Source: an uncultured Candidatus Binatia bacterium (lineage in GTDB: Bacteria; Desulfobacterota; Binatia; Bin18). From it: a stretch of 64,000 nt of DNA. The translations under genes and the position numbers were made by a program. How positions within the stretch are numbered: position 1 is the first letter of the stretch; the number at the start of each line of letters is the position of its first letter. The stretch is from positions 2,691,251-2,755,250 of the forward strand of contig OZ243979.1 in the NCBI GenBank assembly GCA_965214755.1, written 5' to 3'. Below the pieces are notes generated by a model. The model made no database searches, was not told the origin of the DNA, and worked only from the letters and a program-made list of their open reading frames with translations. Positions 5,678 through 57,565 of this stretch are shown one piece after another.

Positions 5678-5725
5678 AGTAACGGCTTGTCAAAGTAACG
5701 GCTTGTCAAAGTAACGGCTTGTCAA
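5678..5725. repeat. perfect tandem repeat, 3 x 16 bp (AGTAACGGCTTGTCAA), overlapping the vapC stop codon
   Basis: Read directly: agtaacggcttgtcaa x3 at 5678-5693, 5694-5709, 5710-5725, followed by a degenerate partial unit. Encodes the C-terminal FDKPLL* of VapC on the minus strand. Confidence 0.9.
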
Positions 5726-6071
5726 AGGTCGCTAACGGACAGCCTTCCCGCTCGGCGAGTTCAACAAAAAGCGTATCGTAGGCTGCTATATTCGCCGAAT
5801 AGGCACGGATGAGAGCGCCGTGCCATAAACTTTGTACTGGCACGGTTCGGATACCAAGCGTTACTGCCAAATCGAGTTTATGGAGCGCTTCTGGAGGGGA
5901 GAGAACTTTCGTGCGAACAGCCATCCACACAACATTCGTGAGTTCCGCTTCCCATGACGCGGGGGCTACAGGTTCTTCAATCGCACGCCAAAACGTAGCG
6001 CACTCTTGACGGAAAGGCTGAGTGCCGAGGAGAAAGTAGGCAATGACGTTCGTGTCTACAACGACTCTCAC
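5706..6071 (-). CDS. vapC: type II toxin-antitoxin system VapC family toxin (PIN domain)
   Basis: MRVVVDTNVIAYFLLG... is a PIN-domain N-terminus with conserved acidic residues. 4-bp overlap with the upstream antitoxin gene. Confidence 0.75.
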   Translation of the reverse strand: MRVVVDTNVIAYFLLGTQPFRQECATFWRAIEEPVAPASWEAELTNVVWMAVRTKVLSPPEALHKLDLAVTLGIRTVPVQSLWHGALIRAYSANIAAYDTLFVELAEREGCPLATFDKPLL

Positions 6072-6295
6072 CGCCGTCCTTCTTGAATCCAGGAATCAAT
6101 TTTCTGGGCCGAGGGTGAGCGACTCTGGGAATCCCACGAACGCTTAATCTGCTCAATTGCCGCAAGCCTGTCTCCAGCGTAGCGCTCAATCATCTCGCGG
6201 CCTTCTTGCTCCATAGAACGATGATTGCGTTGTGCGAGAAGTTTTATAGATTGGATGACTTCCGGCGAAAGGTTGCGAATCGTTAAAGCTGCCAT
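6068..6295 (-). CDS. vapB: antitoxin VapB, ribbon-helix-helix (FitA/Arc-like)
   Basis: 75 aa. MAALTIRNLSPEVIQSIKLLAQRNHRSMEQEGREMIER is a FitA-like RHH antitoxin. ATGA overlap with vapC. Confidence 0.6.
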   Translation of the reverse strand: MAALTIRNLSPEVIQSIKLLAQRNHRSMEQEGREMIERYAGDRLAAIEQIKRSWDSQSRSPSAQKIDSWIQEGRR

Positions 6296-6347
6296 GACTG
6301 CAATACGCTAGCATCCGAGTCTGTGGCAGGCAATATGGAGGAACACT

Positions 6348-21475: not shown

Positions 21476-21627
21476 GACGGATTTCCCCTCACCGGTGGAG
21501 GGCCGGACAACCACAGTGGGTTGCCCCTACCTTTTATCCCCTCTCCCGCTGGGAGGGAGCCAGGGTGAGAGTTCCTCTTGTGGACACGGTTTGACCAGGG
21601 TGCTTCTGGTCGCTACTTTGCTTATGT

Positions 21628-21921
21628 ATGAGAGCGGTCGGAATAAAAGTACTGAACAGTCGGTTGAGCGAATACGTGCGGCTGGCTGCATCGGGCGAGA
21701 CCGTTCTGGTCACGGACCGCGACCATGTTGTCGCGGAAATTGGTCCCCCGAGAGAAACCAGAAGCCCAATTCTCGCCGATGCACTGCTGGCCGCGGCCGT
21801 GCGCAGGGGATGGCTGACGCCGCCGGCGCTGCCCGCCACGGGGGAGCCTCCGACGCCGCAACGAGTTGCGCCGTTACGCACTCTTCTCGGCGAATTGGAC
21901 GCCGATAGAAGCCAACGGTGA
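21628..21921 (+). CDS. type II antitoxin, Phd/YefM family
   Basis: MRAVGIKVLNSRLSEYVRLAASGETVLVTDRDHVVAEIGPP is a Phd/YefM-like N-terminus. 4-bp overlap with the downstream PIN gene. Confidence 0.6.
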   Translation: MRAVGIKVLNSRLSEYVRLAASGETVLVTDRDHVVAEIGPPRETRSPILADALLAAAVRRGWLTPPALPATGEPPTPQRVAPLRTLLGELDADRSQR

Positions 21922-22304
21922 TCTACCTCGATACCTCTGTTGCGCTCGCCCAACTTCTGGCGGAGGACCGACGCCCACCAGCCTCGCTTTGGGACGATAC
22001 CCTGACGGCCAGCCGATTGATGGAATACGAGGTCTGGACCCGGATTCATGCTCGCGGGCTTGCGGATTCATACGGCGAGGCCGCGCGCGGGCTCATCGGA
22101 CGGGTCGCGCTGCGGGAGCTATCCCCACCAGTGCTCGCGCGCGCCCTGGACGCCTTTCCCGTACCCGTCCGCACGCATGACGCCTTGCATCTGGCGTCAT
22201 GCGACTACCTGCGCAACCAAGGTCAATCGGTCTCGCTTGCCAGTTACGACCGCCGTATGACCGCCGCGGCCCATGCCCTGGCCCTCCCTGTCTACGACCT
22301 GTAA
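21918..22304 (+). CDS. vapC: type II toxin VapC (PIN domain)
   Basis: GTG start. IYLDTSVALAQLL..., HDALHLASCDYL, and the C-terminus ...AAAHALALPVYDL fit the PIN fold. Confidence 0.7.
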   Translation: MIYLDTSVALAQLLAEDRRPPASLWDDTLTASRLMEYEVWTRIHARGLADSYGEAARGLIGRVALRELSPPVLARALDAFPVPVRTHDALHLASCDYLRNQGQSVSLASYDRRMTAAAHALALPVYDL

Positions 22305-22585
22305 CCTTCCTGAACCGCACGACAGCTTACAGCCGGAACATGGTTCGCCTTTATACCACTCTACAGTGGCCCACAGCAGCTTCACGCAAGCGTGAGCGCT
22401 CTCCGACCCACTAGCGAGCCAGAGCGCTCATTTGTCATACCCTCTCCCTTGCCGCGTATGCAGCATCAAGGCATCTTAACGGAGGACATGATACAAATCG
22501 GGAGTCAGAGTCATTCGGACATTGCAGTTTTATCGTGGAAAGCCGCTGTCGCTTTGGTGGCGTCCTGTACCATGTCGGCAACGCC

Positions 22586-23913
22586 ATGATGCCAAGCCAG
22601 TTTATTACCAAGTGGCGCGTCTCAGAGTTGAAAGAACGCTCCGCGTCGCAAGAGCATTTCGTCGACCTGTGCCACCTGCTGGGTGAACCCACACCCGCCG
22701 AAGCCGCCTCCACCGGCGACCACTACTGCTTCGAGCGCGGTGCGCGTAAAGACACCGGCGGCAAGGGCTGGGCCGACGTGTGGAAGCGCCACCATTTTGC
22801 TGGGAGTACAAGAGCAAACGCAAGAATCTGGACGCAGCTTTCAATCAGTTGCGGCAATACGCCTTGGCGCTGGAAAACCCGCCGTTCTTGATCGTGTCGG
22901 ACATGGCGCGGTTCCGCATCCGTACCAATTGGACCAACACGGTCAGCCAGACCTATGAGTTCGAGTTGGACGGTCTCACTGACGCGGCTAATCGTGACAA
23001 GCTTAAATGGGCGCTATCCGACCCTGAGCGTCTACGGCCGGGCGAGAGCTGCCGGGCCCTTACCGAACGCGCAGCAATGACCTTTGCCTCGTTGGCGCAA
23101 TCGTTGTGCGAGCGCGGCCACGAGAGCCATGTTGTTGCGCATTTCGTCAATCGCCTAGTGGTCTGCATGTTCGCCGAGGATGTCGGCCTGCCACCGAACG
23201 ACATGTTCACTCGGATGCTGGAACAGGCCCACAAACAGCCCGAAGCGTTCGCCACTCTGGCCCGTGTTCTATTTGGGGCGATGGCCACGGGCGGCCTAGT
23301 CGACTTTGAGGCCGTGGCGTAGTTCAACAGCGGGCTGTTCGACGACAACACCGCCCTGCCGTTGGAGAAAGCCGACATTGACACCGTGCGCTCGGTGGCA
23401 GCGCTCGACTGGTCAGAGATTGACCCCTCAATTCTGGGTACGCTGTTCGAGCGCGGGCTTGACCCGGACAAGCGCTCTCAATTGGGCGCACACTACACCG
23501 ACCGGGATAAGATCATGCGGATTATCGAGCCGGTAGTGATCCGGCCTTGGCTGGCCGAGTAGGAAACTGCGAAAGCCGAGATCGTGTCCAGTCTGGAAAA
23601 GGAAACTGCCGCCAAGTCAGCCTCCGCACAGACCCGGCGGCGTAGACAGGCCAGACGCTTTCTGAGGGAATTCGTCGATCGGCTGCGGTCCTTCCCTATA
23701 CTCGACCCGGCCTGTGGTTCGGGCAATTTTTTGTATCTCGCCCTCCAGGCACTCAAGAATATTGAGCACCGGGTGCAGTTGGAGGTTGAGGCGTTCGACT
23801 TAGAGCGGGAGTTTCCCAAGGTCGGCCCGGCTAATGTCAAGGGAATTGAGATCAACCCATACACGGCGTGGCCTGTGGTGCGGCTCTTGAACCATTCGGG
23901 GCGTTCTCGATAA
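22586..23913 (+). pseudogene. MmeI-family (type IIL R-M / BREX PglX-like) N6-adenine DNA methyltransferase, N-terminal ~440 codons, disrupted and 3'-truncated
   Basis: FITKW..ELKERSASQEHFVDLCHLLGEPTP...GGKGWADVWKRHHFA | WEYKSKRKNLDAAFNQLRQYALALENPPFLIVSDMARFRI is the MmeI/PglX N-terminal module. A -1 frameshift near 22797 (expected ...HFAWEYK). An in-frame TAG at 23320 replaces the Y of the conserved (P)YFNGGLF motif (here VA*FNSGLF). A second in-frame TAG sits at 23560. SAM motif I FPILDPACGSGNFLYLAL is present. The ORF ends before motif IV (NPPF), so it is truncated. Confidence 0.65.
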
Positions 23914-23963
23914 ACGGCAGGCATGCTTCGGTTTGCGTTGACGACAAATCAGGGTAGGCTGGC

Positions 23964-24491
23964 TTGAAATTAAGCAAGCTACGGCGGGTAAAAGGCATGG
24001 TTAGCGATCAGACTCGAAACACCATTTGGCAAGGACTGTTGGATATGGCAAGGCTTGTCCGTTACTACGAAAGCCTGTCCGACCGGCATCGACGCAAGCA
24101 TTTTTGGATTCGCATCGTGCTACTTGCCGCGGCGGCTAGTGGTATTGCTGCCTTGCTTGATCTGTTTCCAGAGGTCATTCAGATTGTTGCCGGCGGTCTG
24201 GTCGCCCTATGTGTCGTATGGGATTTCGTGTCAGACTACGCAAAAAAAGCGGCCATCCTGCACGCAATCAGCATTGAATGCAGTGCTCTAGAGGTCGAAT
24301 GACAAGACTTGTGGGGCGATCTTGAGAACCTCGACGACACGGAGGCTCGACAACGCAACACCCGCCTGTCACGGAGACTCACCGAGGTCACCGGATGGGC
24401 GGGGCATACCGATATTCAAGAAGACCCAAAGCTGAATGAAAAATGCGAAGCCGCAGCCTACCGGGTGATGCAGGATCAGTATGGCGTCTGA
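23964..24491 (+). pseudogene. predicted 2-TM membrane protein (SLATT-like effector, tentative) interrupted by in-frame TGA at 24300
   Basis: LVRYYESLSDRHRRKHFWIRIVLLAAAASGIAALLDLFPEVIQIVAGGLVALCVVWDF has two predicted TM helices after an amphipathic N-terminus. The downstream ORF 24309..24491 is in the same frame, separated only by TGA. Confidence 0.3.
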
Positions 24492-24911
24492 CATGAGAAG
24501 ACGTACAGCCTCAGGGAAGCCCGCAAGGCCGGGTAAGACGCCACCACCTCCCCAGACCCAAGCCGGAGCAGGGCAAACCGAAACCCAACCAAGGCAAAAA
24601 GTAGCCCCTAGAGTTATTGCCGAAACCGACGGCTAGCACAGTTTTCACAGAGGTGTAGCGGGTAGGCGGCAAGCGTGTGAAGCGGGCAGCACCACTAGGC
24701 CGGAGGGCCTAGGCGAGCGGATTCGCTGGCCCTGCGGGAGCGGGTGGGAGCAGATCGGGAGGCGGGACTCCCGACCGCCGAGGGGCCCACAAGTAGCGGG
24801 TGCGTCCGGCGTGGGTCCGCCGCCTGCTACAGCGCTCCCGAGCGAGCGGCCACGTGGCCCCGCAGCGCCGGCCGCCGTTAAGCTAGTCCTCCCTACCACA
24901 GGAGGTGAGCC

Positions 24912-26046
24912 ATGCCTATTGATCTCGATACGTTCCTTGTCGCACTCTATACCATTGTGGACGATCTGTACCAGCAGCAGGCGGCCCCGGCCAAGCCGGT
25001 GCGCCGCGGTCCTCGGCCGACGGTGTCGGACAGTGAGGTGTTGCCCCTGGCGCTGTGTGCACAGTGGTGGGGGCGTTCGGAGCGGGCGTTCGTGCGCTAT
25101 GCGCGGGCGCAGTGGCGCACGTATTTTCCGCGCTTCCTCAGTCAGAGTGCATATAACCGGCGGTGCCGGGACTTGGCCGGGGTACTGGTGGCGCTGGTGC
25201 CAGCGGTGGCGCGGGAGCTGTGCGCGGCGAGGGCGGCGTATCAAGTGCTGGATACGGTGGCGGTCCCCTTGCTGCGCCGTTGTCGGGGGTGTCGGCGGCG
25301 ACTGTTTGGGGACGAAGCGGCCCTAGGGTGGGGTGGGAGTGATAAGGACTGGTACTATGGCTGTAAGTTGCTCTTGGCGGTACTGCCGAGGGGCGGGGTG
25401 ACGGGCTTCGTGCTCGCGCCAGCCAGTACCGAGGACCGCTGGCTGGCGGACGCCTTGCTGGGCTGGCGCGTCGCCCCCATGCCCGGCCCCGCCAGCGGCA
25501 GGACTTGCTCCGGCCACCGCGGGCCAACGGGACCCCGTATGTGGAGCCCACCGGGCCGCGGTGGCCGCAGTTGGGAGCCGGGGTCCCCAGCACGGGTCCC
25601 TATCTGGCCGATAAGGGCTTCTCGGGGGCGGGGTGGCAAACGCATTGGAAGCAGGACTATGGAGCACCCGTGCTCACGCCCCCGCAGGCGCGGGGTACAA
25701 CGTGGGCAAGACATTGCGGGCATCTTCAGGACTGACACGCCCCCGCAGGCGCGGGGTGCAACGCGCCACCGCTCCTTCTCCACCTCTTCGACCGGCCACG
25801 CCCCCGCAGGCGCGGGGTGCAACGAGTGCTCACGCCAAACGCCAACATAGCCGCTGGCGCCAGATCGTCGAGACCATCAATGGGCACCTCACCCGCACCT
25901 TTGGCTTGCACTTTCCAGGCGCCCGCACCCCCCACGGCTTACTGACGCGCATCGCGGCCAAGCTCGCCGCCGTCAATCTCGGCCTCTGGTTCAACCGTCT
26001 CTTCGGCCGCCCCCCATTGGCCCTCGCCACCCTCTTCCCTGCCTAA
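24912..26046 (+). pseudogene. IS982-family DDE transposase, disrupted (three frames)
   Basis: MPIDLDTFLVALYTIVDDLY...RRGPRPTVSDSEVL...WYYGCKLLLAV... | ...YLADKGFSGAGW...YGAPVLTPP | ...RWRQIVETINGHLTRTFGL...TRIAAKLAAVNLGLWFNRLFG match the IS982 pattern (M..L.ELF..i.c..DDF; DKGY; LiTP.rkN; IEt.F..LK). An extra GC-rich segment with a 14-bp inverted repeat (25512-25525 / 25553-25566) and a 122-bp repeat-spacer insertion break the frame. Confidence 0.75.
25675..25824. CRISPR. ectopic mini CRISPR-like array: 3 x 28-nt repeat (CACGCCCCCGCAGGCGCGGGGTGCAACG) + 2 unique 33-nt spacers, embedded in IS982 transposase ORF
   Basis: Repeats at 25675-25702 (one A/G variant), 25736-25763 and 25797-25824. Spacers are tgggcaagacattgcgggcatcttcaggactga and cgccaccgctccttctccacctcttcgaccggc. 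Period 61 bp. The repeat has the CCCCGC-loop-GCGGGG stem and a 3' ...CAACG tail like type I-E repeats. One repeat copy is native coding sequence (TPPQARGAT). Confidence 0.45.
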
Positions 26047-26092
26047 CAATGTGCATCACACGTACTGGGAGGGAGGCAGGATGAGAATTCCC

Positions 26093-27250
26093 CTACACCG
26101 GAGCCTCATGCATGCGCCAGGACTTCTTTCCCGCCGGGAGATTGAACAGCTTGGCGGCATTCTCCCGCATGATGTCCTGGCGTTGCTCCTCTGTGATATG
26201 GGCCGCGTGGTCGGCCAGTAGTTGCTGGGAGCGCGGCCAGGTGGAATCCGTATGCGGGAAATCACTGGCCCACAGCAATTGTTGGTGCGGCATGATATCG
26301 ACCGCATGAAACGCGGTCGGGTCGTCTTGGAAGGTCATCCATACATTGCTCTTGATATATTCGCTGGGAAGTTTTGACAGGCCGTCAATAATCCCGCCCT
26401 CGGCGTTAATCCTGGCGGCGTGGTCCATGCGATACATATAATGCGGCATCCAGCCGGCGTCGCCCTCGGCACACACCAGTTTCAATTGCGGATGACGCTC
26501 AAAGACGCAACCCAAAACCATGAGACCGACAACATCCTGGACGGCCCGGATGATGCCCAGAAAATTGTTCATCTCATGGCCTCGATGCGGCATGTTCAGG
26601 CTGCCGTCCCGCGAGGTCAGAATATGAAAACAAATGGGCAGTCCCAGGTCGGTTGCGCACTCCCACAGGGCGTCGTAGTCGGCGTGGTCATAGTCTTCGT
26701 AGATGGGCCGACCCGGCATCATCATGCCGACCATGCCCATGTCCTTGGCGCGCCGGAAATCCTCAATCGCGCTGTCTACGTTCAGGACCGCGGTCTGTGC
26801 CAGACCCAGGATGCGGTTCGGCGCTTCGCTGCACGTAGCCTGTAGCCAGCGGTTATAGGCCAACATGCAGGCGTTCTTATAGTCCGGGTCCCGGTGCATG
26901 CACAGACCCATCCCAATGGAGGCGTAGATGGCTTCAGCCGCAATCCCGTCCTGGTCCATATACGGAATTCGCGCCTGACCGCCATAGGCCCCCTCACGAA
27001 TATCAGAGAACCTGACTTTTTTTGCGCGGTTGTTGCGCTCCGTGACCGTGAAGCCGGCACCATCAATGAATCCCAGGGGAATCGGACGCTTCATGCCGTG
27101 TACGACAAAGGCGTCCGTACCATCGGGTTGTTCCACGATACGCGGGGCGACGGCGCGGTATTTTGGCTCAATATAGTCGATGTAACAATTGGCTGGCTCA
27201 CACACATGGCCGTCGGCTGAAATGATCCCTGCCGGTATCTCTTGCATCAT
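26093..27250 (-). CDS. amidohydrolase family protein (amidohydrolase-2; paralog of 1029..2138)
   Basis: MMQEIPAGIISADGHVCEP, ...WASDFPHTDSTWP. RBS GGAGAG before ATGATG. Same architecture as the first amidohydrolase. Confidence 0.7.
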   Translation of the reverse strand: MMQEIPAGIISADGHVCEPANCYIDYIEPKYRAVAPRIVEQPDGTDAFVVHGMKRPIPLGFIDGAGFTVTERNNRAKKVRFSDIREGAYGGQARIPYMDQDGIAAEAIYASIGMGLCMHRDPDYKNACMLAYNRWLQATCSEAPNRILGLAQTAVLNVDSAIEDFRRAKDMGMVGMMMPGRPIYEDYDHADYDALWECATDLGLPICFHILTSRDGSLNMPHRGHEMNNFLGIIRAVQDVVGLMVLGCVFERHPQLKLVCAEGDAGWMPHYMYRMDHAARINAEGGIIDGLSKLPSEYIKSNVWMTFQDDPTAFHAVDIMPHQQLLWASDFPHTDSTWPRSQQLLADHAAHITEEQRQDIMRENAAKLFNLPAGKKSWRMHEAPV

Positions 27251-30857: not shown

Positions 30858-33800
30858 TCACTCGAACGAGGCTAGCAACCCTTCAAGCCGTTTACGGGTT
30901 GCGGATTGGACCCGAGAGATTCCAATAGCTTTCGCTATATCCCGCATAGGCTCCGCTGCTCCTGTCTCCTTCACATTCTGAATGAGTGCTCTTAATTCTT
31001 CTTGACAGATTTCCTCAGCCGACCGATAGGCGTCTTTGTCCTCAGGGGCTCTAAAGATTGTCCATTTGTCCGGCTGCGCTCCCGCAGGCCAGTAAAATTT
31101 TCTCTGGTCTTCTGTGCTAGTCTGAAACTTCTTCTTCTGTGCAATAGTGCGGACTCGGTCCTGTATTAATCTTCCCGCACGCTGAAAGCCGTGCGCACGC
31201 GCTACGCGTTTGATGAGGAGATCCTCGTGTATCGGTCCTTCGACCTCAATAATACGTGTGATGAGCGCAGAGAGTATTTGGGTATAGCTCTTTTCCTTGA
31301 ACGCTTCTGGACTGATCTGATCTTCAAACTCACTGAGATCGGTCGCTCGATAAACGGTTTTCAAAAACTGTCTATCTCCTGGAGCTGATCCAGCTCGTGA
31401 GGCCGTCAGTTCATACTGTTCACTCGGCTGCTTTTTTAACATTGTGTCGGCCTGCTCTTCGGCTTGAGCACGCGCGGTATTCAGTAGTTCCTCCAAGGCA
31501 TGCTGGAGCTTCTCCGTCGCACCAACTGGGTCAATCCACCAATCGGTTGACCATATCCTGAGGATGTTCCAGCCGAGTCTACGGAGTACCTGTTCCCTTA
31601 CCTTGTCACGATCTCTTGCCGTTGCAGATCGATGATAGGTTGCGCCATCGCACTCTATCCCGGCAAGGTATGCTCCTGGATTGTCAGGGTGTACCACGCC
31701 GAGATCGATCCGAAAGGCCGATACACCGATCTGACTCTCAACCCTCCAGCCCTTAGCCCGTAGACGATTGGCAACCGCTTTCTCAAAGGGGGAGTCATAC
31801 CCACCAACTGAACCATGGACGGCTTCTGCTAATGCATGCGGCCCACGCTCCGCATATTCCATGAAGTGCTTTAGGTCCCGTACTCCAACAGCTTGGGTGC
31901 GTGACAAATCAATCTGCTCAGGTCGGAAGCTGGAAAAAACGACGAGCTCGCTTCGGGCACGAGTAATAGCAACGTTCAGACGACGCTCCCCACCCTCTTT
32001 ATTCATTGGCCCAAAGTTCATCGTCATATGCCCCGTGCGATCAGGCCCATAGGTGAGCGAGAAAAACATGATATCGCGCTCGTCCCCTTGGACGCTTTCG
32101 AGGTTCTTTACAAAGACAGGCTCTGTAAGATCATCCGAGAAGAACGGCTCAATCTGCGGGGACTTGCGCCGTTCATTGTCCAGTAAATCCTCTATCAAGC
32201 GCTGTTGCTCCGAGTTAAATGTCACAATGCCAATAGATTTCTGTGGGTTGAGGGGAAGCTGATTCTTCAACCGTTCAACCACCTCAGCTACCACCGCTTG
32301 TGCCTCTATTGCATTGGACCGTGCCCTAGCCCGTTCATATACGGCATCTTCAACAAAACGAAATTTCACCGCGGTATCCTCGGTTCTCGCCGAGGGAAAT
32401 GTGATCAAACCGCCACTATAGTAATGGTGATTAGAGAATGCGATGAGACTTTCGTGCTCACTACGATAGTGCCAGTTGATCTTATGCTCCGGTAGACTGG
32501 CTCCGAGACACTCATCCAGGATGCTTTCCAGGTCGCCTTCCAGATCAACCTCTTCGTCTGCCTCTTCATCGGAGCGATTAAAGAAGCTTGTTGGGGGAAG
32601 CTGTTTGGGATCCCCAACAATCACCGCGTGCTTAGCCCGTGCGATAGCACCAATGGCATCCCAGATCGTGATTTGAGAGGCTTCATCAAAGATCACTATA
32701 TCGAACTGCGCCTGACCTGCGGGGAGGTATTGCGCTATCGAGAGTGGACTCATGAGCAGGCATGGGGTTAGCTGAGGAAGAGCGGTCGGCATCTCTGTGA
32801 CAAGTTGCCTGAGTGGCTTATGACGCTGTCTTTTCTCCAACTCGCGTTTCAGTATGCCGAACTCTGATCCACGCGCGACGTCATTTTTGGATGGTAAATC
32901 GCCACTCAAACGAGCTCTGATATATTGCCGAGTGATTACGGAGAATTTGTCATCGAGTGCGCGGAATTCCTTAACCGTTGCTTCATGCTCGGCAGAAACA
33001 AAGGTTCTGAGCACCTCGTCGTTATCCACAACTGCATTGATCCACCAGCGTGCATAGTTGGTCTCAAAAGCTTGCTCCACACCGCCCAGGTCAATTCCCC
33101 CATTCTCCAGTGCAAGGATGAGATTTTCGAGGCCCAACTCGCTTGCTTCATTTCGCACTCTCCGCCAAGCACACCATGTGTTCAATTTGGCCTTATTATG
33201 GATGATTACGGACAATGATACGTTTGTATTTGAGAGCCAATCCTCCAGTTCTCCTTGGCCAAGCCGGTCAAACGCCTCATTACCGGCGAGAGAGGCGAAT
33301 TTTCTGAGTTGATTTTGAAAGTTACTCCACTCTTTTGAAAGCCTCTGGCTAGTGCGCCCAATCTGGCTGGTATCTTCTAATAGATCATTGCCGTCCTCAA
33401 GCAATCTTTTGAGCTTGGCGCGGATCTCAACCAAACTGTCTGTATCCTGTCCTAGTGCTGCAATGGCACGACGAATTTTGCATGCAATTTCCAGTTCTTC
33501 TTGGACCTGGGACACTTCCGTGTTGAAGCCTTCCCACACAGCGACTGCAGATAACCTTTCCTCTAAGCTCGCCAGCGTCTGTCCAAAAGTTCTTAAAGAA
33601 TCAAAAAGAGCTAAATCTTCTGCAACGTCTGGTGTATGTCGTGCGCCACCAGCAGATCGCAGATCTTTTCTTATGAAAAGTTTTTGAAAGAATGACAGTG
33701 GCCACCAGGTGCGAATGGCGGCTTTCCAACGCGTTGCGAGATCGTCAATAGGGATATTTTGCCACGCCTGTTCGGCATAACTCCCCGAGAGTTGCTGCTC

Positions 33801-36683
33801 AGTCTTCCGGTATTCCTGAAGAGCCGTACATGCCTGCTCAAGCGCAGAAATAGTCTGTCCAGCACCGGACTCAGCCGCGTAGCCCATGTGTCTTCTGAAA
33901 CATAGTGGGAGGACTTCAGCCAACTCAGCGAGAGCCATTAATTGATCGTAGTTGTGGCCCGTGGATGAAAGTCCCAAGTCCAATGCAAGAGTGGCGACAG
34001 GCTCTACAAGTGCTTTCGCTGTCCGCGAGAGGGTTGCACAATGGACGAGCAGTTGTTCCTGCCAACCGGGTGACCAATCGCTTGTATGGACACTACTAAG
34101 CGGACTACCGGAAATCTCGCCAAGTTCTGCCACATTGATATCAATCCGGTGGACTACCTCCCTCAGTTGGTCTAAGTCTTCGGAACTGTGCGTATCTGGA
34201 TGTGACCACTGGAGAGAAACAAATGGCATACTCTCGTCGTGGACAATGCGGCCCATAGCGAGATAGGGTGTCAGGCCGTTCGCATATTGATGATGAAGCC
34301 GCTGGACAAATCTATTCAGCTTGTCACGATGTTTCTTCAAACGCCCTGCTTCTGTTTTCCACTCGTGAATGGTGTGGGCGCCTGACCGATCCCATGCCTG
34401 TCTTAATTGCTCCAACACGGCAGTCTTCCGTGCTTTGTTTGAATGCAGTTCCAGGCAGAATTCGCCAAGACCAACCTCCCTGAGGCGTCTATACACCACA
34501 TCAAGTGCAGCAATTTTTTCAGAGACAAAAAGGACTTTGCGTCCCTCTGCAAGATTATGCGCAATCATATTCGCAATAGTCTGAGACTTGCCTGTCCCTG
34601 GCGGGCCAAGAAGAACGAAATCCTTTCCCTTTGCGCAAGCAAGCACCGCTGAGAGCTGTGAAGAGTCCGCAGGCAACGGGGTTAAAATATCTGCCGGACT
34701 GTACCTCTCGTCTAAGGTCTCTGGATTAGGAAATTCTATTTCACCGGCGTACGGATCGCGAGGCGTTTCTATTAAATGCCGAACAATATCATTTTCCTTA
34801 AGATGAGCGGTACGATCGACTAAATCTTTCCACATCAAATATTTTGCGAACGAAAACAGGCCCAGGACAATCTCCTCAACGACCTCGAAGCCTTGAACCT
34901 CTTTCACTTCCTGTCGAACTTTGTTCCAAACGAGAGTTACGTCTATACCATGGCTATCTTCGGGAAGTGCTCCATCGAAGCCTTTGATGTCTAAATTAAA
35001 ATCCTGCCTCAACATTTCTAACAGCGTAGTATTGAATCTGGGCTCGTCATCGTGGAGAGAGAGGCGGACGCCTGATCGGACACTTTTTCGCTCCAAGGTC
35101 ACGGGAATGAGAATCAGTGGTGCCCGGAATTTACGATCCGAACTATCGTCTTTTTTCCAAACAAGAAAACCGAGAGCGAGGAACAGAGTGTTCGACCCGC
35201 CTTCTTGTAAATCACTACGTGCGGTTCGGAATAGTTCCACCAGCCGACTCTCCAACTCCTTTTTATCAAGTTCGACGAGCAATTCGTCCCGTAATAAAGC
35301 TGCTTTTGCGTACTCTTCTGTCAGATGCTCGCCGGTTCGCTGATGATGTAAGGTGCTGGAGCGGCCGTCTTCAACCTCCATATTAGGCGCTGACACGATT
35401 TTCATCTTCTTACCGTCAGCTAAGCGGTCTTCCAGCGTGCTAAGGTCTGGACAAAAAATCTTTACTGACTTTTTCGTCGCGCGGAAATTCAACAAGCGAT
35501 TACGTAAAGAAAGATCAAGCAGCTTTCTCTGCCATCGATCCAACCGGGTCTGTGGCGAAGTTTCCTCAGGTTGTATTTCTCCAATTGGGGTATCAAAATC
35601 CGGCAGACCCTCTGGTGCAGCTTCGAGTGGGTCGTCTCGATGCGCTACCGCTGACTCAGTACTGCCCTCTGCTTGTGGTGCCTGACTGGCAAGCGGCCTC
35701 ACCCTTTGCATCCGAGCACGACGAATATCCGTCGCCAAGATAAAGTCCTGCTCACGCTCTTCTGCAATCTGCCGCTTGGCTTCGTCAATCGCTGCAGAAA
35801 AAGGTGCGGGAGGGTGGTTTGTTGCTAATGTTGTCTCAAAAACTAACAATTCCTTTAGATCGATCCGTTTTCGAAGAGTACTGGCCTCATCCACAACGAG
35901 CTTGGAAAATTGCTCTGGCTGGAGCCACGCACCGGCAAAAGCGTGTCCTGCGATGAAGACAAGGATAGGGTTGAAGCCTGCTTGTTCTAGAGTGGCTGCC
36001 AAGAATAGCGCCAAGTCAAGACAAGTGGCTCTACCAGAATCAATAATTTGAGACGGTAAACGAATTTTCTGCCCAGTTGTCTCAAAGCTCGCTGGTGGAA
36101 GTGCGTAATCGAGCCGAAGGCTCGTGAGCGCTGACCAGATGGCTGAGATGATTTCCCAAACCCGCTGTCGAGAACCAGAGGTGTAGCCGTCAATGTGAGG
36201 TGGCCTTCCAGCCTGTCGCAGAATTTCACTCGTACTTTTGAGAAGCTTATCCACAGCCGGATCGTTGCTGGCGCAAAAGGCTGCCAGCAACTCTGGCATA
36301 AAATGAACGCCTCCCCACTCGTTATGCGCCAGCAGTTCAACAGGCTGCGTGGCCGAAGCGAGCCCGGTTGAATCGTTATCCTTAGTATGGAGGGTAAAGC
36401 GAGCGTTTCCAGAAACTGCTTCATTGAGGCCTAACAGATATTCCCCGCTCAGCATAATATCCAAGTCATCTAGGTGCAGGATATCATCGGTTCGCAAGCA
36501 GTCGATTGTCCAGTTTCTTGGTGTGAAAAAAATTGGGTCGGATGAGAACTCCAGAGTCAGATTCTCATAGTCAGACTCTGAGACGTTATGAAGAGACAAC
36601 TCTCTAATAAGCGGTACCGAGTTTTGATGCGACGCAAAAGTGATCTTCTTGGCAACGGTTGCGCAAATTTGAATACCGCTCAT
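30858..36683 (-). CDS. giant DUF4011 - SF1 (Upf1-like) helicase - DUF559/Vsr-like PD-(D/E)xK endonuclease - DUF3320 protein; Hhe-like single-gene antiphage candidate
   Basis: 1941 aa, uninterrupted. DUF4011-like RKLLDLSLRNRLLNF. Walker A LLGPPGTGKSQTIANMI. Helicase motifs VIVGDPKQLPPT, SVQGDERDIMFFS and NVAITRARSELVVFSS. C-terminal nuclease ...IDLGVVHP...GIECDGATYH...LRRLGWNILRIWSTDWWIDP. Terminal DUF3320-like region. Gene GC is clearly lower than the flanks. Confidence 0.7.
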   Translation of the reverse strand: MSGIQICATVAKKITFASHQNSVPLIRELSLHNVSESDYENLTLEFSSDPIFFTPRNWTIDCLRTDDILHLDDLDIMLSGEYLLGLNEAVSGNARFTLHTKDNDSTGLASATQPVELLAHNEWGGVHFMPELLAAFCASNDPAVDKLLKSTSEILRQAGRPPHIDGYTSGSRQRVWEIISAIWSALTSLRLDYALPPASFETTGQKIRLPSQIIDSGRATCLDLALFLAATLEQAGFNPILVFIAGHAFAGAWLQPEQFSKLVVDEASTLRKRIDLKELLVFETTLATNHPPAPFSAAIDEAKRQIAEEREQDFILATDIRRARMQRVRPLASQAPQAEGSTESAVAHRDDPLEAAPEGLPDFDTPIGEIQPEETSPQTRLDRWQRKLLDLSLRNRLLNFRATKKSVKIFCPDLSTLEDRLADGKKMKIVSAPNMEVEDGRSSTLHHQRTGEHLTEEYAKAALLRDELLVELDKKELESRLVELFRTARSDLQEGGSNTLFLALGFLVWKKDDSSDRKFRAPLILIPVTLERKSVRSGVRLSLHDDEPRFNTTLLEMLRQDFNLDIKGFDGALPEDSHGIDVTLVWNKVRQEVKEVQGFEVVEEIVLGLFSFAKYLMWKDLVDRTAHLKENDIVRHLIETPRDPYAGEIEFPNPETLDERYSPADILTPLPADSSQLSAVLACAKGKDFVLLGPPGTGKSQTIANMIAHNLAEGRKVLFVSEKIAALDVVYRRLREVGLGEFCLELHSNKARKTAVLEQLRQAWDRSGAHTIHEWKTEAGRLKKHRDKLNRFVQRLHHQYANGLTPYLAMGRIVHDESMPFVSLQWSHPDTHSSEDLDQLREVVHRIDINVAELGEISGSPLSSVHTSDWSPGWQEQLLVHCATLSRTAKALVEPVATLALDLGLSSTGHNYDQLMALAELAEVLPLCFRRHMGYAAESGAGQTISALEQACTALQEYRKTEQQLSGSYAEQAWQNIPIDDLATRWKAAIRTWWPLSFFQKLFIRKDLRSAGGARHTPDVAEDLALFDSLRTFGQTLASLEERLSAVAVWEGFNTEVSQVQEELEIACKIRRAIAALGQDTDSLVEIRAKLKRLLEDGNDLLEDTSQIGRTSQRLSKEWSNFQNQLRKFASLAGNEAFDRLGQGELEDWLSNTNVSLSVIIHNKAKLNTWCAWRRVRNEASELGLENLILALENGGIDLGGVEQAFETNYARWWINAVVDNDEVLRTFVSAEHEATVKEFRALDDKFSVITRQYIRARLSGDLPSKNDVARGSEFGILKRELEKRQRHKPLRQLVTEMPTALPQLTPCLLMSPLSIAQYLPAGQAQFDIVIFDEASQITIWDAIGAIARAKHAVIVGDPKQLPPTSFFNRSDEEADEEVDLEGDLESILDECLGASLPEHKINWHYRSEHESLIAFSNHHYYSGGLITFPSARTEDTAVKFRFVEDAVYERARARSNAIEAQAVVAEVVERLKNQLPLNPQKSIGIVTFNSEQQRLIEDLLDNERRKSPQIEPFFSDDLTEPVFVKNLESVQGDERDIMFFSLTYGPDRTGHMTMNFGPMNKEGGERRLNVAITRARSELVVFSSFRPEQIDLSRTQAVGVRDLKHFMEYAERGPHALAEAVHGSVGGYDSPFEKAVANRLRAKGWRVESQIGVSAFRIDLGVVHPDNPGAYLAGIECDGATYHRSATARDRDKVREQVLRRLGWNILRIWSTDWWIDPVGATEKLQHALEELLNTARAQAEEQADTMLKKQPSEQYELTASRAGSAPGDRQFLKTVYRATDLSEFEDQISPEAFKEKSYTQILSALITRIIEVEGPIHEDLLIKRVARAHGFQRAGRLIQDRVRTIAQKKKFQTSTEDQRKFYWPAGAQPDKWTIFRAPEDKDAYRSAEEICQEELRALIQNVKETGAAEPMRDIAKAIGISRVQSATRKRLEGLLASFE

Positions 36684-56617: not shown

Positions 56618-57565
56618 TCAGCGCCGTTGGCCGCCTTCGTCGTGGGCCTGAGCCTCGGAGGTCAGATGCGTAAAGACTAACTCCAGGGTCGGCGGCAGTG
56701 GCTCTGCCCACACCTCCGTCATGCCTAGCTCGTGCAAGGTTGTACGGACCTGGGCAATCTCTGCCGTTGACTCCAGCACAACACTGCCGGCAAGCGTTTG
56801 TGTTCGGACGAACCACGCCGCAGGCCGGAGTGCGGCGAGTGCCTCTTCTATGTTCCTGCCGACCAGACGAGAGGCATGATACGGGTAGTTTGATCGAATG
56901 GCATCCGGAGTGCCGCGGGTCCGGATACGGCCCTCATACAGATAGATCAGCTCATCACACCGCTCGGCCTCGTCAAGATAGCCGGTTGACATGATAATAG
57001 TCACCTCCTGCAAGTGGCGTAGGATCTCCCACACCTCACCCCGGGCAATGACACCCACCCCAGTATTCGGCTCGTCGAGAACCGGGAGTTGAGGGCGATG
57101 GATCAGCGCGCAGATCACGGCGAGCTTTTGTTTCATCCCGCCCGACAAGTTACCGGCTGCGCGGGTTTGAAAATCCTGGAGCGCGGCAATAGTCAGCAAC
57201 TCGTCCGAGCGCTGCTGAAACGTAGCAGCGGCAATGCCGTGAATATCGGCAAAGAACTTGAGGTTATGCAGCACGCTTAATTCAGGGTAGAGCCCAAACG
57301 CCTGCGGCACATAGCCGAGACGTTCTCGGATGCGGTATGGTTCGCGCGCAACATCATAGCCCAGGACGTGCGCCTGGGCAGCCTCAAACTCCAGCAGCCC
57401 AACGAGAGACCGCAAAAGGGTGGTCTTGCCCGCGCCATCCGGGCCAACCACACCAAAGATGCACGGACGCTCAATGACGAGATCAATCCTGTCCAACGCA
57501 ACCGTGGCATCGAACCGCTTATGGAGCTGCGTCAGGCTGACAACCGGCGTCTGCGGTGTGGTCAT
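56618..57565 (-). CDS. ABC transporter ATP-binding protein
   Basis: GVVGPDGAGKTTLLRSL (Walker A), LSGGMKQKLAVICAL (signature), LPVLDEP (Walker B). ATGA overlap with the HlyD gene. Confidence 0.75.
   Translation of the reverse strand: MTTPQTPVVSLTQLHKRFDATVALDRIDLVIERPCIFGVVGPDGAGKTTLLRSLVGLLEFEAAQAHVLGYDVAREPYRIRERLGYVPQAFGLYPELSVLHNLKFFADIHGIAAATFQQRSDELLTIAALQDFQTRAAGNLSGGMKQKLAVICALIHRPQLPVLDEPNTGVGVIARGEVWEILRHLQEVTIIMSTGYLDEAERCDELIYLYEGRIRTRGTPDAIRSNYPYHASRLVGRNIEEALAALRPAAWFVRTQTLAGSVVLESTAEIAQVRTTLHELGMTEVWAEPLPPTLELVFTHLTSEAQAHDEGGQRR

Follow-up and report, generated by a model that had tools for sequence, protein, structure and literature searches.

A three-repeat, two-spacer array inside an IS982 transposase pseudogene of an uncultured Candidatus Binatia bacterium: a probable natural case of off-target type I-E integration

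How does a transposase gene come to contain what looks like a CRISPR array? The locus considered here lies in the window, the whole 64-kb stretch of DNA that was analysed, from an uncultured Candidatus Binatia bacterium (the host is described as an uncultured soil bacterium). Inside the transposase gene of an IS982-family insertion sequence (IS), a sequence search of the 64-kb window found the 28-mer CACGCCCCCGCAGGCGCGGGGTGCAACG in three copies, starting at 25675, 25736 and 25797. The initial annotation took these copies, together with the two stretches that separate them, for a neo-CRISPR, that is, for the outcome of two ectopic spacer integrations by Cas1-Cas2 at a site that had been a single stretch of coding sequence. 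Here we describe the anatomy of the array, reconstruct the gene that preceded it, compare it with known type I-E repeats and weigh the ways in which it could have arisen.

The transposase pseudogene and its array

The features of the locus, in order along the window, are these:

24879..26078, + strand: relic of an IS982-family insertion sequence, left-truncated and with no left inverted repeat; right tip at ~26078
24912..26046, + strand: transposase pseudogene in three frames (from 24912, ~25479 and 25825)
25474..25478, + strand: C5 run with a 1-nt deletion that gives the first frameshift (DNA alignment with 7 relatives)
25675..25702, + strand: repeat copy 1, CACGCCCCCGCAGGCGCGGGGTACAACG, with 1 mismatch; abuts native upstream coding sequence
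25703..25735, + strand: insert (spacer) S1, TGGGCAAGACATTGCGGGCATCTTCAGGACTGA, 33 nt, 55% GC
25736..25763, + strand: repeat copy 2, the same as copy 3 at 28/28 nt, IS-native flanks included
25764..25796, + strand: insert (spacer) S2, CGCCACCGCTCCTTCTCCACCTCTTCGACCGGC, 33 nt, 70% GC
25797..25824, + strand: repeat copy 3; abuts native downstream coding sequence (..SAHAKRQHSRWRQIVETING)
26048..26067, - strand: right terminal inverted repeat core of the IS, CAGTACGTGTGATGCACATT, matching the left-end motif of relatives

The element belongs to the IS982 family as a relic; it is no longer intact. The best family for its transposase is NCBIfam NF033520 (IS982), at 117 bits, which is below the 130-bit cut-off. 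Similarity of the IS to its relatives begins at ~24879, and the relatives extend ~60 nt further, including ..CAGGACGTGTGATGCA... The terminal motif of the IS has a single copy in the window, at 26048–26067, and of the two inverted repeats only the one on the right remains.

The pseudogene is divided among ORFs at 24912–25850, 25505–25735 (frame 2, the middle part) and 25633–26046 (frame 1, the C-terminal part), while a further lesion, a 1-nt deletion in the C-run at 25474–25478, puts the N-terminal part of the transposase (from 24912) into a third frame. At this run, the seven relatives aligned carry 5–6 C within a 6-nt stretch (six C in five of the seven), and in the DNA alignment with them the deletion is the sole indel internal to the ORF besides the 122 bp gained with the array. 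A homopolymer error of long-read sequencing may account for it. The ORFs thus agree with the earlier claim that the 122 bp break the gene from frame 2 to frame 1. The element has other lesions besides these: the left inverted repeat is gone, and the C-run adds a frameshift of its own.

The array itself is exact. The intervals between copy starts are 61 and 61 bp, with no deviation, as had been proposed, and the bases that border copies 1, 2 and 3 disagree with one another both before the repeat (T, A and C) and after it (T, C and A); therefore duplication extends over exactly 28 nt, and each insert measures exactly 33 nt. The locus thus has the generic form of a CRISPR array, with a constant 28-nt direct repeat present three times and two unique 33-nt inserts, and it is the sole CRISPR-like direct-repeat family within the 64 kb. 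No additional match to the 28-mer was found on either strand of the 64-kb window with up to 3 mismatches; against the three copies observed, 0 were expected by chance (100 shuffles). Each copy reproduces the local target together with its flanks, without any difference between copies 2 and 3 and with a single derived base in copy 1, the G-to-A change noticed earlier in the upstream-most copy, which falls at repeat position 23 where the relatives have G. The IS-native flanks CACGC and TGCAACG are present in all three copies, and the copies are therefore target duplications, not repeats imported from another array.

When S1, S2 and the 33 nt flanking the array on each side were compared pairwise, ungapped identities were only 2–11 of 33. 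The two inserts are thus unrelated to each other, in keeping with the initial annotation, and unrelated to the locus as well, and neither is a duplicate of adjacent IS sequence. No second copy of S1 or S2 occurs in the 64-kb window. Protospacers were sought by blastn against phages and plasmids and by exact 20–28-mers against IMG/VR, and S2 was further searched as a codon-degenerate pattern against IMG/VR and JGI metagenomes. For both inserts these searches were empty or gave matches at the level of chance: no source of S1 was found in the window, the retrieved loci, phages, plasmids or IMG/VR, and no full-length source of S2 in the window, phages, plasmids, IMG/VR or JGI metagenomes, and therefore no PAM could be read for either. 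The 3' 17 nt of S2 are an exact match to the ..NHLFDRP coding region of three IS982 relatives (L013, L014 and L044), for which the empirical chance is ~1%.

Two other candidate structures were considered at this site and rejected. The 11-nt GTGCTCACGCC, found at both array ends, is not a target-site duplication, as deletion between its copies leaves the frame unrestored; in the native reading its two copies encode V-L-T-P and S-A-H-A, and SAHA is shared with the homologue P0003. A dispersed hairpin element of the REP/BIME kind was rejected in turn, as the window has no other copies and one copy is coding sequence.

The ancestral gene and its relatives

Removal of the 122 bp, together with the repair of one C, gives an IS982-family transposase colinear with homologues of 335–337 aa. 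Over its full length this one-copy reconstruction can be aligned with 23 such homologues, which cover 100% of it. In the protein alignment, P0002 reads VLTPPQARGAAR at the native site and P0003 reads ..RGAASAHARRQH, and the native reading of the repeat is ..L-T-P-P-Q-A-R-G-A-T... In the DNA alignment, eight relatives have single-copy coding sequence homologous to the 28-mer. That one copy of the repeat is native, as had been suggested from its reading frame, is therefore well founded in both the 23 colinear homologues and the DNA homology: since hundreds of homologues exist of this coding sequence, the single-copy state of the ancestor can be rebuilt nucleotide by nucleotide. This native state is read through homologues, the closest of which has 85% protein identity to the transposase, and not through the same allele.

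Among 62 loci from species-representative genomes, every relative whose site could be read has one copy and no insertion, and the metagenome copies are likewise single; none of the other IS982 copies aligned thus has the three-copy structure, as the initial annotation had anticipated. Nor was a generic 61-bp satellite, a canonical array or a second IS copy with this repeat seen, the 24-nt repeat core having 0 matches in the genome and metagenome collections (the window's own genome lies outside them). Exact matches to the proteins of window genes, which would have led to the same genome or to variants of the strain, were not on record. Loci of related strains were reached through the neighbouring amidohydrolase, a cluster of 205 members. 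A pre-integration allele was not present in the 11 syntenic loci recovered (~89% nucleotide identity); the IS sits inside a 3.75-kb island, and that island is absent from all 11.

Comparison with type I-E repeats

All three copies contain the palindrome CCCCGC-AGGC-GCGGGG, placed 5 nt from one end of the repeat and 7 nt from the other, and the unit of 28 + 33 = 61 bp (for type I-E also written 29 + 32), found twice, has the type I-E length. Canonical I-E arrays share this period of 61, the 28-bp unit, the 33-bp insert and the CCCCGC-N4-GCGGGG hairpin with 5 and 7 nt to its sides. In the array of E. coli K-12 (CRISPR-I; L065), used as a control, the period is 61 bp, and 5 nt separate the stem from the leader end of the repeat and 7(+1) nt from its spacer end. 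The I-E array on the Streptomyces goshikiensis plasmid NZ_CP115939.1 (L069), whose 15 repeats recur with a period of ~61 and which has a Cas6e gene 8 kb off, carries the same 16-nt stem-loop, CCCCGCAGGCGCGGGG, as the window repeat. The RNA folds are also of one kind, with a hairpin of -16.0 kcal/mol for the window repeat vs -15.1 kcal/mol for that of E. coli. The resemblance to an I-E repeat is thus real, and in its lengths, its 5/7 geometry and its identity to the Streptomyces stem-loop it goes beyond what had been stated.

The known rulers of I-E integration allow a stricter comparison. One 28-bp repeat is reported to be both required and enough, only the inverted repeats being essential, and the repeat-spacer junction falls 8 nt past GCGGG and 16 nt past CCCCGCG (Goren et al., 2016; PMC5039180). 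On the + strand of the window, GCGGG ends at position 20 (+8 = 28) and CCCCGCA at position 12 (+16 = 28), and the 5-nt 5' flank before the stem agrees with the leader junction; the - strand reading of the ruler predicts 30.

On the other hand, the fit is not complete. The forward loops of the E. coli and Streptomyces repeats, GCCA and GCCT, match the - strand of the window, while the geometry fits the + strand, so that the loop is opposite to the geometric orientation. The first inverted repeat on the + strand reads CCCCGCA, not CCCCGCG. The window repeat also lacks the conserved ATAAACCG / ATGAACCG handle of canonical arrays (TGCAACG agrees with ATAAACC at 3/7 positions), and it differs from them further in that it consists of IS protein-coding sequence, has only three copies, and stands without leader or adjacent cas operon. 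Rfam gave no match for the array, but it missed the genuine E. coli K-12 array likewise and is hence uninformative.

The palindrome has no other site in the 64 kb, even with one mismatch, so integration would have taken place at the sole such site in view. Neither the perfect palindrome nor its A/T stem variant is present in the first 64 loci examined, IS982 relatives included.

The surroundings of the array are equally bare. The initial annotation had reported neither leader nor cas gene, and both absences hold within what was scanned: no cas gene was found by PADLOC in the 19 window ORFs that encode 296 aa or more, or by Pfam in 10 ORFs close to the array, and there is no leader- or promoter-like sequence upstream of the array, with 0 sigma-70-like sites in 24400–26200. 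Where a canonical array would have an AT-rich, promoter-bearing leader, this one has GC-rich IS coding sequence on both sides (the GC content of the IS is 68%). In one related Binatia-like genome we observed an array that is not of type I-E, with repeats of 36–37 nt.

Origin of the array and what it may mean

The best explanation of these observations, and one that we regard as probable, is off-target integration by type I-E Cas1-Cas2, twice, inside the IS982 transposase gene. The neo-CRISPR interpretation is supported in that all of the sequence-level predictions that were tested came out as expected. On this explanation, the transposase gene would by chance have held a CCCCGC-N4-GCGGGG palindrome as ordinary coding sequence, the palindrome being the one element that type I-E Cas1-Cas2 requires in a repeat. 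On two occasions Cas1-Cas2 with a 33-bp prespacer would have docked on it, staggered attacks 28 bp apart (5 bp ahead of the stem and 7 bp past it) would have joined the prespacer, and gap repair would have duplicated the 28-bp target. The expected product is repeat-spacer-repeat-spacer-repeat, 122 bp over the ancestor and with a shifted reading frame. Judging by the cut geometry, the + strand would be the forward orientation and the leader-equivalent side would lie upstream; S1 would have been inserted after S2, and the base change in copy 1 would have arisen during or after the insertion of S1.

Could the array have been imported instead of built in place? Recombination or gene conversion across the 16-nt palindrome might have copied into the IS a piece of a canonical array that lies at another place in the genome; real I-E arrays with exactly this stem-loop exist, and a sufficiently homologous donor is conceivable. 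An imported repeat would, however, carry the handles of its donor (CTGCT / ATGAACC, for example, in the Streptomyces array), whereas the internal copy 2 keeps the IS-native CACGC and TGCAACG over 28 nt that are homologous to the relatives' coding sequence, and the 24-nt core is in no array of the genome and metagenome collections, outside which the window's own genome lies. Copying from a donor array is thus disfavoured, and we judge it very improbable. The head-to-tail period of exactly 61 bp might also bring to mind a 61-bp tandem triplication, by slippage or unequal crossing-over, with later divergence of the 33-nt parts. Yet the 28-nt parts are identical at 27–28 of 28 positions, but agreement among the 33-nt parts and the native flanks is limited to 2–11 of 33, a pattern too uneven for divergence; triplication is refuted on these grounds and is scarcely credible, and the region received no score from Tandem Repeats Finder.

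An assembly or sequencing artefact has to be weighed as well, for the relatives are long-read metagenome-assembled genomes with 4–5 Mb contigs, and the nearby 1-nt deletion in the C-run resembles a homopolymer error. An artefact would not yield two distinct, unique 33-mers between exact local 28-nt copies with CRISPR geometry, and we hold this origin to be highly improbable. As to the agent, the integrase might have been other than I-E Cas1-Cas2, whether it belonged to the adaptation module of a different CRISPR subtype or was an uncharacterised enzyme resembling Cas1 or a transposase, in favour of which one may cite the different CRISPR type carried by a relative and the loop orientation at odds with the geometry. 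The 61-bp period, divided as 28 + 33, and the 5/7 placement around CCCCGC..GCGGGG are nonetheless specific to the I-E rulers; type I-F has a period of 60 and a different hairpin, and casposon duplications are of ~14–15 bp. We consider another integrase improbable.

With type I-E Cas1-Cas2 as the probable agent, the locus adds a rare case from nature to a phenomenon already demonstrated in the laboratory and involves no new mechanism. In the neo-CRISPR loci of the E. coli I-E system, as here, a repeat-like, non-CRISPR chromosomal sequence is duplicated around an insert of spacer length, without leader or adjacent cas genes, and the process is repeatable and leads to a small array. In contrast to those loci, the present case is natural, comes from an uncultured Candidatus Binatia, is read as an integration from its sequence, and would record two successive events at one site, in transposase coding sequence with a reconstructable ancestor. 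The 2018 study of Nivala, Shipman and Church on the E. coli I-E system (Nat Microbiol 3:310) reportedly also names Yersinia pestis and Sulfolobus islandicus as putative occurrences in nature. The founding of neo-CRISPR loci by off-target integration is established (Nivala et al., 2018, as set out in 10.1101/148544 and PMC11788318). Cas1-Cas2 of Pyrococcus furiosus likewise carry out full-site integration in vitro at non-CRISPR sites that share the repeat length and a few key bases, although that work concerns another subtype, a 30-bp repeat and plasmid targets (PMC6698737).

One may also go further and read the locus as a natural newborn array, transcribed by way of the dead transposase gene, its hairpins processed by Cas6e into working guides; a variant would have a mobile, plasmid-borne I-E module found the array and then leave. 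We think this extended reading unlikely. Were the plasmid-borne variant true, arrays could be seeded without a resident cas locus, and were the newborn-array reading true, the partial match of S2 would suggest that first memories may target mobile elements of the kind in which the array itself sits (the IS982 family).

The origin of new arrays is still argued chiefly from laboratory over-expression and a few circumstantial natural cases. Against this background the locus is an unusually clean natural intermediate, in which the lengths of duplication and insert, like the positions of the cuts, are open to direct comparison with the biochemical rulers. With probable type I-E integration as its cause, it would document how specific the integrase is in vivo within an uncultured phylum, the target being the lone I-E-like palindrome in 64 kb, and it offers a search template for similar events: 28-bp duplications of coding sequence around 33-bp inserts.

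Structure of the array and of the gene that contains it

The array lies inside an IS982-family transposase relic and comprises five segments:

25675-25702, repeat copy 1, with a single G-to-A change at repeat position 23
25703-25735, insert (spacer) S1
25736-25763, repeat copy 2, the exact 28-mer CACGCCCCCGCAGGCGCGGGGTGCAACG
25764-25796, insert (spacer) S2
25797-25824, repeat copy 3, the same exact 28-mer

Start-to-start distances are 61 and 61 nt and, because the copies are bordered by differing bases, the unit is exactly 28 nt and both intervening segments are exactly 33 nt. Pairwise comparison of S1, S2 and the array's 33-nt flanks gives identity at 2–11 of 33 positions, so that the inserts are not duplicates of adjacent sequence, and neither has a second copy within the window. 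The initial annotation had described three copies at a 61-bp period, two unrelated 33-nt inserts and a G-to-A variant in the upstream-most copy, and all of this agrees with our measurements. No further copy of the 28-mer occurs on either strand of the window at up to three mismatches (shuffling also predicts none), and the 64 kb contain no second direct-repeat family of such kind. Tandem Repeats Finder did not report the array region, as expected given that unique sequence interrupts the repeats. An 11-nt sequence on either side of the array (GTGCTCACGCC, 25670-25680 and 25826-25836) was considered as a target-site duplication and rejected as a native coding coincidence (V-L-T-P, S-A-H-A). Elsewhere, a 16-nt unit, AGTAACGGCTTGTCAA, forms a perfect tandem repeat of 3.1 copies (5678-5727).

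The ORFs surrounding the array belong to a single IS982-family transposase gene (top NCBIfam match NF033520, 117 bits, below the cut-off of 130). Joining its three reading frames while keeping one 28-mer copy yields a 339-aa protein that is covered end to end by hundreds of proteins of 335–337 aa. In an alignment of 24 sequences, the reconstructed ..YGAPVLTPPQARGATSAHAKRQHSRWRQIVETING.. is colinear with ..VLTPPQARGAAR--ARRQHSRWRQIVETING.. and ..VLTPKEYRGAASAHARRQHGRWRQIVETING.. in two homologues (P0002 and P0003, respectively), and at the DNA level the 28-mer matches single-copy coding sequence of eight relatives (e.g. CACGCCGCCCCAGACGCGGGGCGCGCGC in locus L067). These alignments indicate that one copy is native coding sequence, as had been proposed, and that the locus has gained 2 × 61 = 122 bp.

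The claim that these 122 bp break the reading frame is correct: they move it from frame 2 to frame 1. The element has two further defects that the initial annotation had missed. At 25474-25478 the window has five C where five of seven aligned relatives have six, a 1-nt deletion that frameshifts the transposase and is the only internal indel of the gene besides the 122 bp; it could reflect a true mutation or, since the related genomes are long-read assemblies, a homopolymer error. In addition, a left terminal inverted repeat (..CAGGACGTGTGATGCA..) precedes the start codon by ~95 nt in the relatives, and the window has this motif at the right end only (26048-26067). With its left terminal inverted repeat lost and its frame defective, the element is therefore an immobile relic. 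A 30-nt direct repeat, 87% identical (21549-21578 and 26065-26094), combines the IS right tip (CTGGGAGGGAGG) with 17 flanking nt. Its first copy sits in a palindromic stretch directly past a luciferase-like gene, and the repeat may be a leftover IS end or a favoured target.

Relatives and genomic context

With one genome scanned per species, the transposase turned up at 62 loci, in Candidatus Binatia MAGs (71–84% protein identity) and Dehalococcoidia MAGs (57–63%). None of the 62 has a transposase match longer than the usual ~1005–1011 bp, and every readable site has one homologous, insert-free copy; the single pseudo-repeat expected of other IS982 copies is thus what they carry, with no three-copy structure among them. 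In a collection of 5.8 billion proteins the closest homologue, excluding the window's own ORF (P0041), is 85% identical.

The amidohydrolase next to the element (26093-27250) belongs to a 205-member cluster of ~96% identity. Eleven syntenic loci from strains of this cluster (~89% nucleotide identity) keep the flanking genes and a PIN/antitoxin pair (21479-22339), which there directly abuts the amidohydrolase; all 11 lack the intervening 3.75 kb, a strain-specific island:

22340-26092, island with an MmeI-like restriction-modification pseudogene (in-frame stops ~22580-23900), small ORFs and the IS982 relic

Because the island is wholly missing, these 11 loci offer no pre-integration allele of this IS copy, and the ancestral single-copy state is deduced from homologues. 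In relative L080 this hotspot carries a different MmeI-like gene.

Type I-E-like geometry and the probable target

As a type I-E reference we read the repeat from the E. coli K-12 CRISPR-I array (L065): GAGTTCCCCGCGCCAGCGGGGATAAACC(G), period 61, laid out as 5 nt, 6-bp stem, 4-nt loop, 6-bp stem and 7 nt plus a protospacer-derived G. For adaptation, E. coli needs one 28-bp repeat and no more; of that repeat's elements the inverted repeats alone are essential, and two rulers place the repeat–spacer junction 8 nt past GCGGG and 16 nt past CCCCGCG (Goren et al. 2016, PMC5039180). On the + strand the window unit reads 5 + 6 + 4 + 6 + 7 = 28, with GCGGG ending at 20 (20 + 8 = 28) and CCCCGCA at 12 (12 + 16 = 28). 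Both junctions agree with these + strand predictions; the − strand prediction is 30. Searching plasmids with the repeat (blastn) led to genuine arrays, including one of 15 repeats (period ~61) on Streptomyces goshikiensis plasmid NZ_CP115939.1; this array lies 8 kb from an annotated type I-E Cas6e gene, and its repeat contains the identical 16 nt, CCCCGCAGGCGCGGGG. The resemblance to a I-E repeat noted initially is therefore borne out in unit and insert length, ruler positions and shared sequence. The repeat RNA is predicted to fold into an E. coli-like hairpin; Rfam had no match to the array, which is uninformative because it also missed the genuine E. coli array.

Read on the transcribed (forward) strand, the two real arrays have the loop GCCA/GCCT, which corresponds to the − strand of the window and is discordant with the + strand geometry. 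In E. coli the loop is dispensable (PMC5039180), and both cut sites fit the + strand only, so the + strand is likely the forward orientation of the array.

The palindrome CCCCGC-N4-GCGGGG, at up to one mismatch, occurs at three places in 64 kb, all within the array repeats, and neither its perfect form nor its A/T stem variant is present in the first 64 fetched loci, IS982 relatives included. This distribution suggests that the IS lineage gained a perfect I-E anchor through ordinary substitutions and then suffered integration.

Origin and significance

That the array arose by off-target Cas1-Cas2 integration, the neo-CRISPR reading of the initial annotation, is on these sequence-level features probable. 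It might instead be an imported segment of a canonical CRISPR array, but this is disfavoured: all 28 nt of the internal copy 2, flanks included, are IS-native, and the collections searched contain no array with this repeat core, an absence which, with the lack of further 28-mers in the window, also speaks against a generic satellite. Tandem duplication followed by divergence was rejected, the repeats being 27–28/28 identical versus 2–11/33 for inserts and flanks, and a dispersed hairpin (REP) element is contradicted by copy number in the window and by coding homology. An assembly artefact, likewise rejected, could not invent two unique 33-mers with such geometry.

As initially stated, there is no cas gene among the scanned window ORFs (19 of at least 296 aa with PADLOC, 10 near the array with Pfam) and no leader; no promoter-like site lies upstream. 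The same window holds a 1941-aa giant helicase/nuclease-type ORF, by sequence a defence gene (30858-36683, − strand; PADLOC candidate families PDC-S37, 1322 bits, and Hhe, 622 bits), also present in relative L075, and a 315-aa ORF, possibly another defence-related ATPase (56618-57565, − strand; mad3 of the MADS system, 7.7e-20; AriA and mad8 weaker).

Searches of phages, plasmids, IMG/VR and JGI metagenomes found no full-length source of S1 or S2. At its 3' end S2 has 17 nt that exactly match IS982 copies from another Binatia MAG (L013/L014/L044, 3963-3979), in the part encoding ..N-H-L-F-D-R-P; its first 16 nt show chance-level identity there. As 0.6–1.2% of random window 33-mers reach a 17-nt match to this set, the match may be chance or may mark a protospacer once on a rearranged IS982-type element.

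Other loci bear repeats of their own. The Binatia-like relative L002 (ENA ERZ21830247 contig_3, 5.18 Mb) has a different CRISPR array, with 36–37-nt repeats ending ..ATTGAAGC (..ATATCCCAAGCGGAGACGCTTGGGCCTCATTGAAGC):

1-1000 and 2130-2810 of L002, array of period 71–77 that includes degenerate copies, interrupted by two small genes and directly upstream of an IS982 copy

In a Dehalococcoidia MAG (L020, CBDCJA010000002.1) an intergenic 29-nt hairpin, GCCTGCCCCGTACTCGATACGGGGATGGG, occurs at 6238-6266 and 6300-6328 with 33 unique nt between (period 62), and its 19-nt core is found once in another genome (L021, 4080-4098), adjoining an IS end; two readings fit the pair, a REP-like element and a one-spacer event like those in the window.

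That Cas1-Cas2 integrates off-target at repeat-like sequences is established in vitro (PMC6698737) and, for E. coli, in vivo; the E. coli work proposed it as a route to neo-CRISPRs, with circumstantial natural evidence from two other species (Nivala et al. 2018, as summarised in 10.1101/148544 and PMC11788318). The window locus is like these cases at the sequence level and, in contrast to a canonical I-E array, has no leader, adjacent cas genes or conserved handle. It is probably a further natural instance of an already known process and reveals no new mechanism. As a textbook-clean natural example it would be useful as a search template and for reading out, in vivo, how specific the integrase is in an uncultured phylum.
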